Part shown: in pieces, positions 273 through 34,707 of the stretch
How positions within the stretch are numbered: position 1 is the first letter of the stretch
Layout: every line of letters starts with the position of its first letter
NCBI GenBank assembly: GCA_027002475.1
Contig: JALWZS010000021.1
Coordinates: forward strand, 205-64,204
Source: a bacterium
Lineage (GTDB): Bacteria; Patescibacteriota; 4484-211; GCA-002791395
Direction of reading: 5' to 3'
DNA: 64,000 nt
Program-made: the position numbers and the translations under genes
The notes under the pieces: generated by a model
What the model was told of the DNA's origin: nothing
The model's database searches: none
What the model saw: only the letters and a program-made list of their open reading frames with translations

Positions 273-783
273 ACTAAAAATAGTTTTGCTAGCTATAGTT
301 CCGGTACTATTTTCCTTGACGTTGGTTCCACACCCTAGTTACGCCGAGCGAGTAAGCGAAACAAACGTTTCTAATCAACCGATCTCTTTAGACGAGGTAA
401 CAAAGATTCTAAAAATAAACTTGCCGGATGTAATGATATTACCAGATTCCCCTTTTTACCAAGTAAAAACCACAATTGAAGAAATACAGTTATTTTTTGC
501 GAGTACTGACGAACAAAAGCTACAGCTCCTACTATCATTCGGCCAAAAAAGGCTAGCTGAAGCCCTCAAGCTACAGGACAAAAACAAACCGGAACTAGCC
601 AAACAAACACTTGACACTTTCGATAAAACCCTAAAGCAAGCACAAGAGATACTTTCAACACTGAACTTAAAACAAGGACTTACGCAGTATCAAACCCATA
701 TCGAGCTGCAGGAAAAAGAGTTTAGTCTTATACAATTTGTTACTGGCGAGTATAATATAAGCTGGCAAAGAAATAACGATTAA
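265..783 (+). CDS. secreted hypothetical protein, DUF5667-like
   Basis: N-terminal signal peptide (MDKLKIVLLAIVPVLFSLTLVPHPSYA). An LPDSPFYQVK motif resembles the DUF5667 LPGDxLYxLK motif. Helical and Lys-rich. Confidence 0.5.
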   Translation: MDKLKIVLLAIVPVLFSLTLVPHPSYAERVSETNVSNQPISLDEVTKILKINLPDVMILPDSPFYQVKTTIEEIQLFFASTDEQKLQLLLSFGQKRLAEALKLQDKNKPELAKQTLDTFDKTLKQAQEILSTLNLKQGLTQYQTHIELQEKEFSLIQFVTGEYNISWQRNND

Positions 784-787
784 CTTT

Positions 788-1759
788 ATGACTATACTTA
801 TTGCTGGTGGTGCCGGCTTTATCGGTACCAATCTTACAAAACATCTCTTGCAAAAATCTCCAAAGACTAAGATCGTCTCGGTTGATGATTTAAGTATTGG
901 CAATGCACAAAATATAGCCGAGTTTAAGGAACGAAAAAACTACGAATTTATAGAATCATCTGTCACAGACAGAAAAACTATCCACGCACTTATTAAGCAA
1001 TATAAACCTGACGTAATAATATCGGCTGTAAATACGTACGAACATGAAAAGGCAATTAACACCTTTGTGCTTGGCAACTACAACTTACTCGAAGGTGCAC
1101 GCTTAAGTGAGCACAAACTATCTTTATTCCTATTACTATCTGACGATGAAGTTTATGGTGACACCGCAACGCTTGAAGGAAATGTCAAAAACGCTACTGA
1201 AACAGATGCGCTAACTCCTAGTAGACCCATCACAGCCGCCCAAACAGCCGCAGATATTATTGCACTTTCCTACTTCAATGAGTTTAAGCTCCCTACTGTC
1301 TCCCTTCGATCTTCTAATATTTTTGGACCGTACCAATCAGAAAATAGGCTCTTAGTACGCCTTATCACACATGCTATTAAAAACGAATCAATCCCAATTT
1401 ACGGCGATGGAACGCATATTAGAGACTGGCTTTATATTGACGACTTTCTTACTCTTATCGAAAAGATAATATCTGACACTAAACCCGAGATGCTAGGCAA
1501 AGCATTTAACGTTTCTATGGAGATGCCACAAACTGTTCTTGCAACTACAGAACTAATCTTAACAATACTAAATAAACCTAAAGAGTTCATAACTTTTGAG
1601 GAGCAAAAGCGCCCAATTACCTATAGGAAAGTGCTTGATTCTAGTAAGATACGAGACCTTTATGATTGGGTGCCAACAACGGATTTTAACGACGCGCTAG
1701 CAAAAACTATAGACTGGTACAAACAAAAAATTCAAGAAGAAAAACAGGCTACTCAATAA
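788..1759 (+). CDS. NAD-dependent epimerase/dehydratase family protein (dTDP-glucose 4,6-dehydratase-like) with degenerate catalytic motif
   Basis: N-terminal Rossmann motif IAGGAGFIGTNL. DEVYGD and GDGTHIRDWLYIDDF match RmlB/GalE-family motifs. The catalytic YxxxK is replaced by ITAAQ. Confidence 0.8.
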   Translation: MTILIAGGAGFIGTNLTKHLLQKSPKTKIVSVDDLSIGNAQNIAEFKERKNYEFIESSVTDRKTIHALIKQYKPDVIISAVNTYEHEKAINTFVLGNYNLLEGARLSEHKLSLFLLLSDDEVYGDTATLEGNVKNATETDALTPSRPITAAQTAADIIALSYFNEFKLPTVSLRSSNIFGPYQSENRLLVRLITHAIKNESIPIYGDGTHIRDWLYIDDFLTLIEKIISDTKPEMLGKAFNVSMEMPQTVLATTELILTILNKPKEFITFEEQKRPITYRKVLDSSKIRDLYDWVPTTDFNDALAKTIDWYKQKIQEEKQATQ

Positions 1760-4387: not shown

Positions 4388-4612
4388 ATAATCACCTCCT
4401 TTTTAGAAAGATATAGTTTAAAGCTAGCATAAATTGCAGAGTACGACAATCTAGTGTTACTAATCTTATTAGTAAAAGATCTAACCGTACCTTTAGTCTT
4501 GTATGGGTTGTTGGTATAATAGCCAAGCGCGCTGGCACACAGCAAAAGAGAACAGCAGATTAAAAAGTTTAAAGGAGGAAAAGCTTTTAAAAAGTTAGTT
4601 GAGATGTAACAT

Positions 4613-4686
4613 TGCCGGATCGTCTAATGGTAGGACGCTTGGTTTTGGTCCAAGAAATTGGGGTTCGAGTCCCTGTCCGGCAGCCA
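4613..4686 (+). tRNA. tRNA-Gln (anticodon UUG)
   Basis: Cloverleaf read by hand. Acceptor TGCCGGA/TCCGGCA, D-arm CGTC..GACG, anticodon stem CTTGG/CCAAG with loop TTTTGGT (U33, anticodon TTG), T-arm GGGGTTCGAGTCCC, discriminator G and an encoded CCA. Confidence 0.85.
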
Positions 4687-8920: not shown

Positions 8921-9185
8921 GGAGTTAGAGGGTTGGAGAGTTGTAGAGTTTAAGAGTTGACGTGAGAACGTCATTGCGAGCGTTAGCGTGGCAATCTCAG
9001 TGGAAAGGTTTAAAATCGCGAGGAGGAAATCGGAGATTTACGACGTGGCGATCCATTGCCCTGAGATTACTTCAGTCGCTTCACTCCTTCGTAATGACAA
9101 GCTCGTCACTGCGAGGAACATAGTGACGCGGCAGTCTCAGTTAGAAAGTTACAGAGTTGGAGTGTATGAGAGTTGTAGAGTTAGC
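8921..9185. repeat. composite intergenic repeat, copy R1 (heptad AGAGTTn arms plus GC-rich palindromic core)
   Basis: Contains gtcattgcgagcg, aatcgcgaggaggaaatcggagattt, cgtcactgcgagg, gtgacgcggcagtctcagttagaaagttacagagttggag. Its reverse complement is about 90% identical to copy R3. Confidence 0.8.
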
Positions 9186-9330
9186 GTATCCACCCCAAAA
9201 CGGGCGATGGTACTAACAAACATTCCGCTTGTGAACTACTCCTTACTTATTTCAAAAGAAACTAAAAGTAAGTAAAGAGTAGCTCGCAAAACACAATCTC
9301 ACTCACAACCACACTCACAGGAGAAACCCC

Positions 9331-9465
9331 ATGGAAGTTCGTAAATTACTAAAAGCAGCCCAAGCAATCGTAGACATTCTCACCGTTGTCACGCTCAAGC
9401 CGGTGATTGATCGCCCCAACAAGAAAAAGAAAAAAGAGACTGTAAAACCAGCCCATATCTCATAG
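9331..9465 (+). CDS. small Lys-rich protein (44 aa), not in supplied ORF track
   Basis: AGGAGA RBS 6 nt upstream of the ATG. MEVRKLLKAAQAIVDILTVVTLKPVIDRPNKKKKKETVKPAHIS. Followed by an intrinsic terminator at 9496-9514. Confidence 0.3.
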   Translation: MEVRKLLKAAQAIVDILTVVTLKPVIDRPNKKKKKETVKPAHIS

Positions 9466-9495
9466 CTGGTGAAGTCCCCGGGCAAAAAATAGTTC

Positions 9496-9514
9496 GGGGG
9501 CTTGCCCCTTTTTT
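9496..9514 (+). terminator. Rho-independent terminator
   Basis: GGGG-CTTG-CCCC hairpin followed by TTTTTT. Confidence 0.5.
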
Positions 9515-9627
9515 AACAAATGACAAAAAACAAATTCTATACTCCAAACAAAACACTAAAGTTTAGGGGGTAGGTGAATTTATCTGTTTGTTACGTTTAG
9601 TGCTTGGTATTTGTGATTTGACACTTT

Positions 9628-9922
9628 TTCAACTCTCCATCTCTTTAACTTTCTGAGACTGCCGCGCTCGTTTCTCGCTCGCAGCGACAGAGTAAAGTCC
9701 CTTTACAGTACGAATATGTCATTACGAGGAGGAAATCGGAGATTTTCAACGTGGTAATCTCAACCATACGTAGACGCTTCACAGCTACGATTGCGTCATT
9801 ACGAAGGAGCGAAACGACTGAAGTAATCTAAGGAAAGCAGATCGCCACGTCGAAAATCTCCGATTTCCTCCTCGCGATGACCTTCAAACTCTCTAACTCT
9901 CCAACCCTTTAACTCTCTAACC
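9628..9922. repeat. composite intergenic repeat, copy R2, with internal MITE-like inverted arms
   Basis: Left arm gtcattacgaggaggaaatcggagattttcaacgtggtaatctc (9717-9760) and right arm gatcgccacgtcgaaaatctccgatttcctcctcgcgatgac (9830-9871) are inverted. Flanked by aactctc heptads. Confidence 0.8.
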
Positions 9923-14249: not shown

Positions 14250-14576
14250 TTAAGCCTGAGGCTCGCGGTATTTATTAATCAGACTCAAAAAGTCCTGCTT
14301 TGCCCTAAGACCGACAATTTGCTCAACAGGCTTTCCATCTTTAAACAAAATAACTGTTGGAATACCACGAATACCAAACATTGCTGCTAATGATGGATTT
14401 TCGTCAACGTTGACCTTTGCAACTTTAACGTCTTTTTCTTCCTGTGCGATTTCAGCAATCATAGGACCAAGAATTCTACAAGGCCCACACCAAGGCGCCC
14501 AAAAGTCAACTAGAGTTAGCCCCTTTGACTCTTGTACCTCTTTGCCAAAATTTGATTCGTTAACTTGAACTTCCAT
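14250..14576 (-). CDS. trxA: thioredoxin
   Basis: WAPWCGPCR active site. 108 aa. Confidence 0.9.
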   Translation of the reverse strand: MEVQVNESNFGKEVQESKGLTLVDFWAPWCGPCRILGPMIAEIAQEEKDVKVAKVNVDENPSLAAMFGIRGIPTVILFKDGKPVEQIVGLRAKQDFLSLINKYREPQA

Positions 14577-14684
14577 GACTACAGTATTTTAACATATTAC
14601 ATGCAAGCCGCTTTTGGCGTTATAGCAATAAATAAAACCAACCCCCAGTATCACAGCGTATTACAAGGAAAAACAGCCCCACAC

Positions 14685-14900
14685 TTTAACTCTCCAACTC
14701 TGTAACTTTCTAACTGAGACTGCCGCGTCACTATATTCCTTACAGTGACGCGCTTGTCATTACGAAGGAGTGAAGCGACTGAAGTAATCTCTGAAAAGCA
14801 GATCGCCGCGCTCCGCTCGCGATAGACGCCAAACGTCAAACCACTATACTTGCTTTGCTCCATAACTCTCCAACTCGTAACTCTACAACTCTCCCCCCCC
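14685..14900. repeat. composite intergenic repeat, copy R3
   Basis: ctctccaactctgtaactttctaactgagactgccgcgtcactat...gtcattacgaaggagtgaagcgactgaagtaatct is the reverse complement of R1. It ends with aactctacaactctccccccc. Confidence 0.8.
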
Positions 14901-14915
14901 AACCCATCCCACCCC

Positions 14916-14944
14916 TTGACAAGTCCTATAGGGTTATGTATAAT
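14916..14944 (+). promoter_or_regulatory. consensus sigma70-type promoter (TTGACA-17-TATAAT)
   Basis: TTGACA at 14916-14921, a 17-nt spacer and TATAAT at 14939-14944. Both hexamers are perfect consensus. Confidence 0.6.
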
Positions 14945-14950
14945 ACGCAC

Positions 14951-15153
14951 ATACTTCAAGGCGAAAAGCTTAAAGTATGTAGTACATTATTTAACATCAG
15001 TAAACAGCTTTGGATCCCTACCCGAAGTAAAACACATAATACTCCGAAAGACTTATGGGACACCCAAAGCATCGGAGTTTTTTATTATCCGAAACAAGAG
15101 AGATGCTCCCGTATCTACCCTAAAGGTACAGGATAATCTCTCCTGTTTTTTGT
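14951..15153 (+). ncRNA. candidate small RNA (about 135-200 nt) of unknown class
   Basis: Transcribed from the consensus promoter. No plausible RBS-led ORF. An internal hairpin CTCCGA..TCGGAG with a T-tract (about 15043-15085) and a terminal hairpin-T-tract terminator. Confidence 0.4.
15128..15153 (+). terminator. Rho-independent terminator
   Basis: ACAGGA-taatctc-TCCTGT hairpin followed by TTTTTTGT. Confidence 0.55.
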
Positions 15154-15240
15154 CTTTAACACTACAAAAGACACTAAGACAGGTAGGGATGACGTGAGTT
15201 TGTTAAACAACGTCAGGGCACCTTTAACAAGTTAGTCTAT

Positions 15241-15306
15241 ATTCTCCGGAGCTTTAGCGATAAAGAGATGATTATATTCGCCGAAGCTTTAGCGAAGGAG
15301 AAAAGA
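15241..15306. repeat. two tandem 30-33 nt direct repeats
   Basis: ccggagctttagcgataaagag and ccgaagctttagcgaaggag, 33 nt apart. Confidence 0.5.
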
Positions 15307-15484
15307 CTAGAAGATACCGAAACGATCTATACCGTACTAGGATCTTTTGGCACTAACTCGTCTAAAGGAGATTTTGCTTAGCTGATCAGAGTCATGCAGT
15401 TTATGAAATAAACTGCCTAAGTTGATTTTGCTACGCAAAATCAACGTCAACGACCTTAACAATTCATTTCAACTTAAACATTAT

Positions 15485-15594
15485 GGGTCCGTAGCTCAAA
15501 AAAGCCAGCTTTATGTAGAGCTGGTTGGCATAGAGCCCCTTCTCGCCGAGGGGCCCCCTGCGGGGGGATGCAGGTTCGAATCCTGCCGGACCCA
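15485..15594 (+). tRNA. aberrant expanded tRNA-Lys-like gene (about 110 nt); anticodon unresolved, possibly CGC
   Basis: 5' GGGTCCGTAGCTCA and 3' GCAGGTTCGAATCCTGCCGGACCCACC form a perfect 7-bp acceptor stem and a canonical T-arm, closely resembling bacterial tRNA-Lys. The D-loop carries a roughly 24-nt insertion with its own hairpin (AAAG-CCAG-CTTT). A putative anticodon arm CCCTT-CTCGCCG-AGGGG lacks position 26. A long GC variable hairpin CCCCC-TGC-GGGGG. No encoded CCA. Confidence 0.45.
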
Positions 15595-15598
15595 CCCC

Positions 15599-15628
15599 AA
15601 AAAAAGCGCGCCTCGATATGAGGCGCGC
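15599..15628 (-). terminator. strong Rho-independent terminator on the minus strand
   Basis: 9-bp GC stem GCGCGCCTC-gatat-GAGGCGCGC, preceded on the plus strand by AAAAAAA (a T-tract on the minus strand). Confidence 0.6.
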
Positions 15629-16109
15629 CAAACCTTAAGTTAGGTCTTTTTGTGTGTCTAGGTATGTAGTAACTTTACTCCATGCCCAGGCCCACAAGAG
15701 GCCAACTTTTCTTTTTTTTCCTGGGGCGTCTGTGCCCCTCTCACCAAGGAGGTGAATTATACGCAGACACTTGTAGTACCGGTCACGTGACCAAACCTAC
15801 CTTCCGTCCGTCATCCTGAAAGCTTACACCGCAAGGTGCAGCCAGGACTTGCCACAATGGCAATCGGAGGAAGTAGCAAGGAGCGGTCAACGTGGTCGTG
15901 AACAACTGAATCGGCAGCCAGTAGCGGACGCTACTGCGACTAGCCGTGCAGGGAGGATACACCCAAAAGAACTTTGTATCCGAAACGCTGAGGGTGTCAG
16001 CGTGCCATAAGGCAAAACAACACCAAGTCCGCCGCTAGTGTGCGGGCGAAAGTCCTGGAAAATGATCCAGGCCGGCACCCATGCCGCCTCTTCGAATAGG
16101 AGGAATAAA

Positions 16110-16565
16110 ATGGGTAGTAATTTTAAGAGTAAAGTAGCAGAGACCATCAAATCCGCCAAAAATATTCAGATGGCAATTAAACTCCTGAAAGAGGCGTTTG
16201 ACGTAAAGGCTGTAGCGGTAAGCTCAGCCCCAGGCCCAATCCAGCGAGCCCCCCGAGATATCGGAGTTCTGGTACAAAGAGGGTTGAAGGACAATGTCCT
16301 TATCAACCTCTACCAGAATTTCCGAGGTGGTACCGGGATGATGGGGGATCGTATCGGACCGGTCCAGTATGAGCTCATAAATGACGGTGAGCTCCCTGGG
16401 GCCATATTTACTTTTGAGGACCAAGTTTACGTCAACCGCCCCCAACTATGGTTTGTTGCCATGGCTTCGGAAGCACTGAATGAGTTCGTGCTAAATCAAA
16501 CCGAAGCCAATGAGCATCTCTTCAAAGTTGCTCGCGGCAAGAAACCTTACTCGAAACTCTACTAA
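16110..16565 (+). CDS. hypothetical protein (151 aa) inside the GC-rich non-coding island
   Basis: Perfect AGGAGG RBS 7 nt upstream of the ATG at 16110. The ORF is continuous. No recognised domain. Confidence 0.5.
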   Translation: MGSNFKSKVAETIKSAKNIQMAIKLLKEAFDVKAVAVSSAPGPIQRAPRDIGVLVQRGLKDNVLINLYQNFRGGTGMMGDRIGPVQYELINDGELPGAIFTFEDQVYVNRPQLWFVAMASEALNEFVLNQTEANEHLFKVARGKKPYSKLY

Positions 16566-17139
16566 CCTACACCCTCTCGCGCCTTCCTGCTGGGCGCATA
16601 AAAAATCAGTAGGTTGCCGGTAAGTGTCGCTTTGCGACCCCCCGCCCGGTGTAAAAAATAGGGGATATTCCTCCCTTCTCACAAGCGAATGAAGAAGGGC
16701 GCCAAGGGCTGCGTAATGCCCCCACCCGAAAACGGGTGCGTCAAATGGGTAGTAAACTACCCAATGCGCTAAGAGCTTCTTGCTCTTTTTACCGTGATAC
16801 GCGCGTCTCAAACACGGGTGCCACCTCCCCCGCGGTGGCGAAAAAATTAGGGGTTTATCTTTGGGCAGTTATGCTTCTGCCACAAAAAAAGCAGCAACGC
16901 GGCTCTGGGTTACATGCTCAGAGCCAAAAAGCGGCAAGGAGTGGTGACAGTCTCCTTGCCGGCAACACTAGCACTAACGAATCATAGGACAATCTGAAAC
17001 TCCCCAAATTATGAAACGCATTTAGATTCACAGTTACTGAGGAATATATTTGTAGTCTGCTTGTTGAGAAGTTTGCTTCTTAGCAAGGAGCCTACAAAGG
17101 CTCAAAGCCAGCCAAGAACGGTCGGATGGATATCATTCT

Positions 17140-17400
<261 letters not shown>

Positions 17401-17804
17401 CGAACTTATATGGGCGATAAGACCTTGATATCTCAACAGATATCATTGCTTCCACCAAATAGAAATCCGACCAACGCTTGGCCACAGGCGGCATTAACTC
17501 GATAGAGCTAATGCCGCCTTATTCTTACTAATGCTCCCCGCTGTGGGTTGAGTAGGGATCGCGTGTAATACATTAGACGCGACAACCCACAGCGAGTAGT
17601 GCGAGTAAGTGGCTCAAATTACAAACCATACAAACAGAACAAACCTTGCAAACAAATTACAAGCAATAAATTACAAACTTCAAACAGTCTGCAACCAAAT
17701 CTGCCCAAAGCCTAAACTATTCTATTTTGTTTAAAATTTGCAATTTGTGATTTAAAGTTTGTTTGTTATGTTTGGGATTTGGAATTTGAAGCTTGATATC
17801 CCCC

Positions 17805-18075
17805 TAACTCACTTGAGATTGCGCCGCATACTCCGTATGCTTACAGAAGAAACTGACGTTTCTTCACCGTACCCTAACCGTCACTGCGAAAGAGCAAACG
17901 CGATTGCGGCAGTCTCTACTTGTAGATTGCTTCTCCTGCCGCGGCGGGTTCGCGATGACGTTTTCACACCAACACTCAGACCCTCCAACTCTTTAACTCT
18001 TCAACTCTCCAACTTGAGATTGCTTCACCCGATATACATCGGGTTCGCAATGACGTTTGCACGTCAACTCATGAG
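17805..18075. repeat. composite intergenic repeat, copy R4
   Basis: cgtcactgcgaaagagcaaacgcgattgcggcagtct, ggttcgcgatgacg and ccaactctttaactcttcaactctccaac. cttgagattgc occurs twice. Confidence 0.75.
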
Positions 18076-18086
18076 ATAATAATGTC

Positions 18087-19160
18087 ATGGAAATGCCTAT
18101 TGGGACATTTGAAGTTGTTGCCAAAGATAACAAAACTAAAGCAAGACGCGGTCGCCTTTATACTCGGCGCGGCATTATTGAAACTCCAGCCTTTGCTCCT
18201 GATGCAACTTACGCAGTTTTAAAACATTTAAGCACTCACGATCTAGAAAAAATTGGTCTTCAAATGATTCTCACCAACACCTATCACGTTAATATTCGCC
18301 CTGGTCTTGAAGTAATAAAAGAGCACAACGGAATTCACAATTTCCTAAAATACGACAAACCAATCCTCACAGACAGCGGCGGCTGGCAAGTCTTTTCATT
18401 AGTTTATGAAAGTAAAATGGGCAAAGTTTTAGATAACGGTGTTAAATTCCGCGATCATATAAGTGGCGACGAGCACTTCTTAACTCCTCAAAAAGCTATC
18501 GACATTCAGTTAACCCTAGACTCTGATATCTTAATGGTTCTAGATTACCCTGTTTCTCCTAATGCAAATAAAAAAGACAACCTCTACTCTATCTCCCGAA
18601 CAACTGCTTGGGCAAAAATTTCAAAAGACACATTTGTTAAAGATGAGCGTTCAAGAGATAAGATCCTTTATGGAATTATTCAAGGAGCAAACGACAAAGA
18701 CTTAAGAAAAAAATCATTTGAGGAACTAGAGCAAATTGGATTTGGCGGATATGGTTTTGGCGGAGTTCCGCTTTATGACGACGTGGTTGAATACACGGCC
18801 GATCTTATTCCAGACAGTAAATTAAGATACATGATGGGATCAGGTACGCCTGATGATATTAAAAAATATGTTGCAATGGGATATGACCTTTTTGACTGCG
18901 TTGTCCCAACAAGAAACGCCAGACACGGTCTTTTATACACAAGCGAAGGAGAAATGCGAATAACCAATGCTAAGTTTAAGTTTGACAAAAAGCCAGTTGA
19001 TGAAAAATGCGATTGTGAGCTTTGCACGACTTACTCACGCTCATACTTACACCATTTGTTTAAAATAAAAGAACCACTAGGCAGACGCCTCGCCACAATC
19101 CACAATTTAAGATTTTATGTAAAGATGATGGAGGAGATGAGAAAATTAATTAATCACTAG
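18087..19160 (+). CDS. tgt: queuine tRNA-ribosyltransferase (tRNA-guanine transglycosylase)
   Basis: LTDSGGWQVFSL active-site motif and a zinc site CDCELCTTYSRSYLHHL. Confidence 0.9.
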   Translation: MEMPIGTFEVVAKDNKTKARRGRLYTRRGIIETPAFAPDATYAVLKHLSTHDLEKIGLQMILTNTYHVNIRPGLEVIKEHNGIHNFLKYDKPILTDSGGWQVFSLVYESKMGKVLDNGVKFRDHISGDEHFLTPQKAIDIQLTLDSDILMVLDYPVSPNANKKDNLYSISRTTAWAKISKDTFVKDERSRDKILYGIIQGANDKDLRKKSFEELEQIGFGGYGFGGVPLYDDVVEYTADLIPDSKLRYMMGSGTPDDIKKYVAMGYDLFDCVVPTRNARHGLLYTSEGEMRITNAKFKFDKKPVDEKCDCELCTTYSRSYLHHLFKIKEPLGRRLATIHNLRFYVKMMEEMRKLINH

Positions 19161-22060: not shown

Positions 22061-22182
22061 TGTTAGTTGAAGAGTTAAAGAGTTATAGAGTTTGAGTGTT
22101 GAAGCGTTTGAATGTCATTGCGAGGAGGAAATCGAAGATTTTCGACGAAGCAATCCCAGATTGGAGAGTTGGAGAGTTGTAC
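22061..22182. repeat. composite intergenic repeat, copy R5
   Basis: Heptad run gttagttgaagagttaaagagttatagagtttgagtgttgaag, core gtcattgcgaggaggaaatcgaagattttcgacgaagcaatccc, and ggagagttggagagttgtac. Confidence 0.75.
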
Positions 22183-28504: not shown

Positions 28505-28715
28505 CTGACTAGTCATCGCGAGGAGTAAAGCAATCTCTACCGCCAGTAGATTGCCACACTACGCTCGCAATGACAACTCACCCGTCACTGCGAAGGAGCA
28601 AAGCGACTGCGGCAGTCTGACGTAGCGTCATTGCGAGGAGTAAGCTTACAGCTTGCGACGCGGCAATCTCTATGAACAGACTGCCACAGTCGCTTTGCCC
28701 CCTCGCGGTGACGGT
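28505..28715. repeat. composite intergenic repeat, copy R6
   Basis: gtcatcgcgaggag, cgctcgcaatgac, cgtcactgcgaaggagcaaagcgactgcggcagtctg and cgtcattgcgaggag. A palindromic arrangement. Confidence 0.75.
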
Positions 28716-34633: not shown

Positions 34634-34707
34634 TGGCTGCGGGACAGGGACTCGAACCCCAATTTTCTGATCCAGAGTCAGACGTCCTACCATTAGACGA
34701 TCCCGCA
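34634..34707 (-). tRNA. tRNA-Gln (anticodon CUG)
   Basis: Reverse complement TGCGGGATCGTCTAATGGTAGGACGTCTGACTCTGGATCAGAAAATTGGGGTTCGAGTCCCTGTCCCGCAGCCA. Anticodon loop CTCTGGA. Paralogous to the UUG copy. Confidence 0.85.

Follow-up and report, generated by a model that had tools for sequence, protein, structure and literature searches.

A tRNA-like gene with a D-loop hairpin and a capped anticodon stub, together with a free-standing 23S rRNA mimic, in a non-coding island of a Patescibacteria bacterium

Non-decoding mimics of tRNA are already known, and here we describe a candidate of this kind from a Patescibacteria bacterium, a 110-nt tRNA-like gene in a 64,000-nt stretch of contig JALWZS010000021.1 (positions 205 to 64,204; assembly GCA_027002475.1), which we refer to as the window. 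Phage T4 encodes two small, stable RNAs of unknown function, C and D, which lie in a tRNA cluster and are processed like tRNAs; the gene can be likened to them by description only. In the Y RNA-like RNA YrlA, the 5' and 3' ends reportedly lie where the anticodon stem would be, forming the helix that binds Ro, and the acceptor is capped. YrlA occurs in bacteria and phage and resembles what we propose for the tRNA-like gene, as it is a non-decoding RNA that mimics the tRNA elbow with its T arm and D arm (PMC4201824). Unlike YrlA, the tRNA-like gene has ends that form a normal open acceptor stem, and no Ro60/TROVE gene was noticed among the open reading frames (ORFs) examined near the locus. Allo-tRNAs and tRNA-Sec share with the gene a long variable arm and a possible eighth acceptor pair, but their acceptor/T branches are of the 8/4, 9/3 or 8/5 kind, their D-stems are long and their anticodon loops have the canonical 7 nt (PMC5389517, PMC7609411), whereas the T stem of the tRNA-like gene has 5 bp, its D-stem has 4 bp and its anticodon loop is non-canonical. 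A 2020 review of non-canonical tRNAs does not cover natural tRNA frames in which the D-loop carries a hairpin and the anticodon stub is capped (PMC7609411). Nothing that fits was found in the literature searched on D-loop-expanded tRNAs, phage tRNA-like decoys and rRNA mimics of the GTPase-associated centre (GAC), and the viral class of tRNA-like genes discussed below is undescribed in those papers. Two things are new at this locus: a natural tRNA frame that combines a hairpin in the D-loop with a capped stub and a GC hairpin in the variable region, and its pairing with a free-standing mimic of the GAC.

Read 5' to 3', the gene is GGGTCCG-TA-GCTC-[35-nt D-loop]-GAGC-CCCTTCTCGCCGAGGGG-CCCCCTGCGGGGGG-AT-GCAGGTTCGAATCCTGC-CGGACCC-A (Table 1). 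The original prediction, made from the DNA letters without database searches, had described a gene of about 110 nt with a hairpin of about 24 nt inserted in the D-loop, an anticodon arm replaced by a stem and loop that keep U33 but have a pyrimidine at position 37 and an apparent CGC anticodon, and a GC extra arm, and all of these elements are present. The elements kept from tRNA are the 7-bp acceptor, U8, A14, the D-stem, a GG dinucleotide and the consensus T arm, which together form an acceptor/T minihelix and a D/T elbow; the acceptor, the 5-bp T stem and the T-loop consensus are those of a decoding elongator tRNA. The GG at 15527-15528, directly after the D-loop hairpin, is a candidate for G18G19. 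The D-loop itself has 35 nt (15498-15532), against a norm of ~7-11 nt in decoding tRNAs, and its 24-nt hairpin insert is fully paired, G-U pairs included. The two perfect hairpins that have been added sit where tRNA architecture tolerates additions, namely in the 5' part of the D-loop and in the variable region. The spacer nucleotide 26 is missing between the D-stem and the stub, and the variable hairpin directly abuts both flanking helices, with no spacers to the stub. At the 3' end, the discriminator A15594 is followed by CCCCA, so that CCA is not encoded in register, and T15484 could pair with A15594 as an optional eighth acceptor pair. All six helices are free of mismatches, some containing G-U pairs: 7/7 pairs in the acceptor, 4/4 in the D-stem, 5/5 in the T stem, and the three hairpins.

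Table 1. Positions of the tRNA-like gene, its parts and other features, numbered within the window
Feature	Position	Strand	Basis or remark
tRNA-like gene, 110 nt	15485-15594	+	Rfam RF00005 match and fold
Acceptor stem, 7 bp	GGGTCCG 15485-15491 with CGGACCC 15587-15593	+	sequence, fold
D arm, stem GCTC 15494-15497 / GAGC 15533-15536	15494-15536	+	Rfam alignment, fold
D-loop hairpin, 10 bp, AUGU loop, 5' part of D-loop	15503-15526	+	free energy -12.3 kcal/mol, z = -5.0
Stub replacing the anticodon arm, CCCUU-CUCGCCG-AGGGG	15537-15553	+	fold, reference tRNA frequencies
Variable-region hairpin CCCCC-UGCG-GGGGG	15554-15567	+	free energy -10.4 kcal/mol, z = -3.1
T arm GCAGG-TTCGAAT-CCTGC, consensus T-loop	15570-15586	+	Rfam alignment, T-arm scan
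Stand-alone mimic of 23S rRNA helices 42-44	17190-17310	+	Rfam LSU_rRNA_bacteria 72.2 bits, model positions 1071-1168 only
Lineage-specific, mostly non-coding island, 3.5 kb, core 14810-17878 unique	14577-18086		synteny, composition
Sigma-70 consensus promoter-like site TTGACA-17-TATAAT, 12/12 matches	14916-14944	+	left edge of island core
GC hairpin then T-run, intrinsic-terminator-like for leftward transcription	15605-15629	-	11 nt from tRNA-like gene
ORF151, 151 aa, strong AGGAGG ribosome-binding site, the island's only ORF with a good one	16110-16565	+
tRNA-Gln(UUG), one of the window's only two canonical tRNAs	4613-4686	+	ARAGORN
tRNA-Gln(CUG), the other canonical tRNA	34634-34707	-	ARAGORN

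The Rfam tRNA model RF00005 matched the gene end to end with 37.6 bits, above the gathering score of 29 (E = 2.7e-4 in the 64-kb window); the alignment puts 33 inserted nt in the D-loop and has 26 nt in the anticodon region, where 15 are expected. The tRNA-like domain of a tmRNA was considered and rejected, as neither Rfam nor ARAGORN called a tmRNA and the element has only 110 nt; ARAGORN in its default mode made no call on the gene at all. The 110 nt were folded by RNAfold into a cloverleaf with three extra or altered hairpins (-60.6 kcal/mol, 40% of the ensemble), with a z-score of -5.3 and none of 200 dinucleotide shuffles as stable. The cloverleaf was retained when 301 nt of context were folded (z = -10), and the fold is stronger on the plus strand (z = -5.1) than on the minus strand (z = -2.5). 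There are only three T arms in the window, one of which belongs to this gene. Both the match and the strength of the fold are far beyond chance.

To find the tRNA from which the frame comes, we searched one genome per GTDB species for the exact combination of acceptor 5' strand, T arm and acceptor 3' strand. This returned only two genes, both of normal length, a Saccharibacteria tRNA-Ile(UAU) (L091) and an alphaproteobacterial tRNA(CAU) (L090), in which the acceptor and T arm are identical to those of the tRNA-like gene. The Saccharibacteria gene additionally has AGAGCCCC after the D-loop, as does the tRNA-like gene. In general architecture the gene resembles these two tRNAs and the class II tRNAs (Leu, Ser, Tyr) in its 7-bp acceptor, U8/A14, 4-bp D-stem, GG, 5-bp T stem, consensus T-loop and paired variable arm; unlike all of these, it has a D-loop enlarged by a hairpin, C37, a C32:G38 pair, no position 26, a spacerless variable hairpin and no CCA. 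BLAST of the 3' half against GenBank phages gave tRNAs of several specificities, including Met, Lys, Arg and Asn. Judged by its sequence, the frame is of the Patescibacteria tRNA-Ile/Met type and is not specifically that of tRNA-Lys. The stems and T arm that the original prediction had called tRNA-Lys-like are there, but the Lys label has to be dropped, as the gene has neither a UUU or CUU anticodon nor a Lys-specific frame. The prediction was right that the window holds no canonical tRNA-Lys; both of its tRNA-Gln genes encode CCA, unlike the tRNA-like gene.

The anticodon loop, CUCGCCG, retains U33 but has C at position 37 and allows a C32:G38 pair, and in the minimum-free-energy fold of the stub this pair is closed, giving a 6-bp stem with the 5-nt loop UCGCC. 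In a reference set of 430 unique tRNAs called by ARAGORN in the loci fetched for this analysis, position 37 is a purine in 97% and C in 0.7%, and C32:G38 occurs in 3%. The stub thus departs from the anticodon arm of a decoding tRNA, in which a 7-nt loop combines U33 and a purine at 37 with an open 32:38 position. The apparent anticodon CGC would be that of Ala, yet the third acceptor pair is G3:C70 in place of the Ala identity pair G3:U70. From these features of the sequence, decoding by the tRNA-like RNA seems unlikely.

Genes of a similar build were found in viral contigs. A pattern that asked only for a tRNA frame and a long D-loop, and did not impose any anticodon arm, matched 82 loci in IMG/VR (L003-L084), and at least six of the seven acceptor pairs were formed in 52 of 66 unique matches. 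The 50 unique well-formed genes have D-loops of 22-47 nt, and only six of them have a canonical anticodon arm; it is missing in the other 44, of which 27 have loops of 3-5 nt. Because the search did not impose the second trait, the association of D-loop expansion with the lack of a canonical anticodon arm is informative, and the viral anticodon-less genes appear to be a recurrent class of non-decoding tRNA-likes. ARAGORN misses them, and some lie inside phage tRNA arrays. The 239-kb viral contig L012 has four tandem tRNA-shaped genes (3946-3333, minus strand) with stubs capped by UUCG or UCCG. Three of the four share a D-loop module with a CGGCA-GCAA-UGCCG hairpin, and two of these three also have CCC-UUCG-GGG. 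The Rfam tRNA model, which was run on L012 only among the viral loci, detected two genes of this array. Like the L012 array, L058, L036, L035, the L019 family and L057, the Patescibacteria gene has an intact acceptor/T frame, a hairpin-prone D-loop and a short-loop stub, and it shows the traits by which we informally delimit the viral class, that is, the acceptor/T frame, a D-loop of at least 22 nt with a hairpin, and the stub. It differs in that its inserts have no sequence in common with theirs and in its setting, as it is chromosomal and has no adjacent tRNA, whereas some of the viral genes are in tRNA arrays.

The second RNA element of the island is a stand-alone mimic of 23S rRNA helices 42 to 44 (H42-H44), which lies 1.6 kb downstream of the tRNA-like gene on the same strand. 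In the ribosome, these helices form the L11/L10 GAC, which contacts the tRNA elbow during delivery. The mimic folds as H42/H43/H44; its H43/H44 core is ~87-93% identical to genuine 23S rRNA, and its H42 stem is preserved, though built from other bases. A degenerate rRNA operon was rejected as its source, as blastn, nhmmer and Rfam found only H42-H44 to resemble 23S rRNA in the island. An exact search for the H43 core identified 47 viral contigs in IMG/VR (L102-L148), in 46 of which the element is free-standing and only 30-37 nt are 23S-like. The layout of this viral family is an H43 mimic, a variable insert and an H44 mimic (UUUGGCGUAAUAGCACACC), with a core of 95-250 nt. Its 6-bp closing stem covaries: across 24 sequences, which have 23 different stems, 5.5 of the 6 positions pair on average, whereas shuffling the partners gives 3.06 +/- 0.24. 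One or more tRNA genes are present in the fetched stretch of 30 of 35 unique viral mimic loci, and 11 of the 35 have a same-strand tRNA that ends no more than 120 nt upstream. Rfam 15 does not contain the family. The family also occurs in cultured phages, among them Aeromonas phage 4_4572 (MK813943.1, 75085-75360; L149 2501-2776), where it lies just upstream of tRNA-Met, Pseudomonas phage pf16 and Xanthomonas phage XacN1, as well as in Pseudomonas phages Astolliot and UNO-G1W1 and in Erwinia/Serratia jumbo phages, and it is unannotated in the GenBank records. The contig with four tandem tRNA-like genes, L012, has a GAC-mimic RNA at ~8120-7746 on the minus strand, which is the strand of its array, and so shows the same pairing as the window. 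In another viral tRNA-array locus, L111, a GOLLD RNA (685-1176, minus strand) was found together with a GAC-mimic RNA (4557-4585, minus strand).

Because both types of element recur in viral contigs, we read the island as a phage-type accessory RNA cassette, and the occurrence of the rRNA mimics in or beside tRNA arrays, with some of the tRNA-likes inside such arrays, leads to the same reading. We give roughly even weight to the proposal that the gene encodes a non-decoding, tRNA-derived tRNA-like RNA within such a cassette, a proposal that draws on the intact tRNA-derived gene, its non-decoding features, the restriction of perfect hairpins to loops and junctions, the distinct lineage-specific island, the recurrence in viruses and the pairing in L012. 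Among the possibilities raised by the original prediction was a tRNA-derived regulatory tRNA-like structure, and the evidence favours the tRNA-derived structure; any function is inferred. Under this proposal, the RNA would be transcribed on the plus strand and would be recognised and trimmed as a pre-tRNA by RNase P and 3'-end processing, with the tRNA frame supplying defined ends and stability. Being unable to read codons, it could use its acceptor/elbow surface and its displayed hairpins to serve as scaffold or decoy for a factor binding to the acceptor or elbow of tRNAs, and it may possibly cooperate with the rRNA mimic. A further step, which we consider doubtful and put forward tentatively, is that the two elements are a phage-derived system of translation-machinery mimics, in which a non-decoding tRNA shape and a free-standing GAC copy jointly titrate or mislead a ribosome- or tRNA-acting factor, such as a ribosomal stalk protein, a translational GTPase, a stringent-response factor, or a toxin or antibiotic directed at tRNA or rRNA. 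If this were true, large phages and this Patescibacteria lineage would share an undescribed means, based on RNA only, by which translation is manipulated or protected. If it is expressed, the tRNA-like RNA would itself be a natural 'tRNA scaffold' in a minimal-genome organism, which is unlikely to keep 3.5 kb of non-coding DNA idle. The covarying and unannotated GAC-copy RNA, which is carried by the island and by many large phages, offers a testable entry to phage interference with, or protection of, translation by RNA mimicry. Taken by itself, the locus is a singleton without conservation, yet it leads to two recurrent RNA classes that are skipped by current annotation pipelines.

Several observations weigh against a functional tRNA-like RNA in a phage-type cassette. 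Scans of GTDB representatives (which do not include the source genome), JGI metagenomes, IMG/VR, GenBank phages and PLSDB plasmids, which relied on exact or gapped patterns or on BLAST-level identity, gave no direct homologue of the gene's expanded parts. Pattern matches in JGI metagenomes were partial or spurious look-alikes only, and in BLAST against GenBank phages and PLSDB plasmids the generic 3' half alone was matched. The gene is therefore a singleton, and evidence from covariation or conservation is absent for this RNA itself. Neither sequence nor covariation supports common descent with the viral class, as the inserts are without similarity and the likeness is architectural. No phage protein gene is recognisable in the island, where the sole ORF with a ribosome-binding site, ORF151, is an orphan. 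Finally, a -10-like hexamer directly upstream of the gene is too near to serve it, and transcription must therefore start farther upstream.

The main rival is that the gene is an inert relic, a tRNA copy carried on foreign DNA that lost its anticodon loop, gained small palindromic insertions and is now unused. We rate this as possible but somewhat unlikely. It is kept alive by the singleton status of the gene, and it would fit an island without recognisable protein function and a gene that has no ARAGORN call and, unlike the genuine tRNAs of the window, no encoded CCA. Neutral decay, however, should disrupt helices, whereas the acceptor, D and T stems and the three hairpins are all mismatch-free and the T-loop still conforms to consensus. 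The changes are also confined to sites that tRNA structure tolerates, and viral tRNA-shaped genes commonly combine the same traits, among them genes in tandem arrays, which cannot be pseudogenes.

A working tRNA of odd shape is quite improbable in our view. Such a tRNA would be class II-like, with a long variable arm, the anticodon CGC and a tolerated D-loop hairpin, and it might be charged by a synthetase that is blind to the anticodon (Ser, Leu or Ala). When the D-loop hairpin was deleted, ARAGORN called a tRNA-Ala(cgc) of 90 nt, in which the variable arm is long and the acceptor has 8 bp. In addition, U33 and the discriminator A73 are present, A15:U48 and G18G19 are possible, and a canonical anticodon loop is kept by six of the 50 viral genes with an expanded D-loop. 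The deletion, however, leaves the anticodon arm unchanged and abnormal. C37, the Watson-Crick C32:G38 pair and the missing position 26 are rare among the 430 reference tRNAs, the G3:U70 pair that Ala requires is replaced by G3:C70, CCA is not encoded, and a GCG-specific tRNA would be of little use in a genome of 39% GC. The eighth acceptor pair is possible, but a tRNA-Sec or allo-tRNA was rejected on account of the 4-bp D-stem, the lack of a UCA anticodon and the non-canonical loop.

The original prediction also offered an intron-containing tRNA and an att-site relic as explanations, neither of which survived. That one or more inserts are excised to leave a normal tRNA is barely plausible. Introns in tRNA genes, of group I, are abundant in Patescibacteria, but the known ones sit in the anticodon loop (PMC13011429). 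We allowed introns in ARAGORN and made systematic deletions in the D-loop; with introns allowed, ARAGORN proposed a tRNA-Glu(ttc) with a 26-nt intron, but in this model the D-stem is reduced to 3 bp and the anticodon stem is mismatched, and the solution obtained by deleting the hairpin, given above, is still not a normal tRNA. The inserts, of 14-24 nt, are far from the ~200 nt or more of a catalytic group I or II intron, and apart from the tRNA and LSU matches, Rfam found no intron family or other known RNA family in the island at E up to 10. Archaeal-type splicing was rejected as well, since the hairpin is fully paired, without the 3-nt bulges of a bulge-helix-bulge, and the anticodon arm stays non-canonical once the inserts are gone. 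A remnant of the attachment site of an integrating element is extremely improbable: tRNA genes are frequent integration targets and the locus is on the left side of an acquired island, but the full tRNA frame with both acceptor strands is present instead of a 3' fragment, the 3' half of the gene is not repeated within the 64-kb window, there is no integrase, and relatives have no tRNA at this locus. A mobile hairpin repeat was rejected as the source of the D-loop insert, whose sequence is found nowhere else in the window.

The island is flanked by the thioredoxin gene trx (14250-14576, minus strand) and tgt (18087-19160, plus strand). The closest homologues of the Tgt protein of this Patescibacteria (candidate phyla radiation, CPR) bacterium, one of them labelled candidate division WWE3, share at most 62-63% identity with it, and WWE3-like relatives keep the gene order ychF - trxB - trx - SDR dehydrogenase - tgt - ... 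mgtE - PGA_cap. Comparison with these orthologous loci showed that the relatives hold a 236-243-aa SDR gene where the island sits, and that their loci contain no tRNA, tRNA-like gene, rRNA mimic or any Rfam RNA; no remnant of the SDR gene was found in the island. GC content is 45-48% in two 2-kb windows over most of the island, against about 37-43% elsewhere in the window. Judging from synteny and composition, the island is laterally acquired. An assembly chimera, in which the island or its two halves would be mis-joined metagenomic DNA, is scarcely credible: two ENA scaffolds (record ERZ23491050) meet with only a 9-nt overlap at 16134-16142, so that the join in the island, across the start of ORF151, rests on one assembly, but one ENA scaffold joins the tRNA-like gene and the ~550 nt after it to trx/trxB (99.99% identity), the right half runs on into tgt, and both flanks are syntenic with relatives.

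ORF151 has no Pfam match, and among 1.8 billion representatives it gave four weak spurious matches to repetitive proteins with unrelated domains; its single-sequence AlphaFold2 model is of low confidence (pLDDT 58). A search for protein genes hidden by a recoded stop codon gave nothing convincing. The promoter-like site at the left edge of the core is a candidate start of plus-strand transcription. The ~200 nt that follow it (region 14916-15160, plus strand) are strongly structured (z = -6.1) and hold two sites with a hairpin and a T-run (~15041-15085 and ~15128-15146), and this region may be a small RNA or leader. Upstream of the tRNA-like gene are two tandem 35-nt direct repeats that are 77% identical (15238-15307). 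The segment directly 3' of the gene (15595-15770, plus strand) is very stable (z = -7.4) and contains a long hairpin at 15637-15708, and the remaining island is a chain of strongly structured segments. A 16-nt inverted repeat, with 15 of 16 positions complementary, has its arms 2.2 kb apart (15128-15143 and 17363-17378), with ORF151, the tRNA-like gene and the rRNA mimic between them; chance, long-range pairing or terminal repeats could each account for it. The ends of the island (14681-14810 and 17878-18070) carry dispersed intergenic repeats that are also present at ~8930-9920, 22065-22178 and 28582-28618, a family made up of AACTCTCCAACTC-type short units and of ~100-nt copies at 95% identity.

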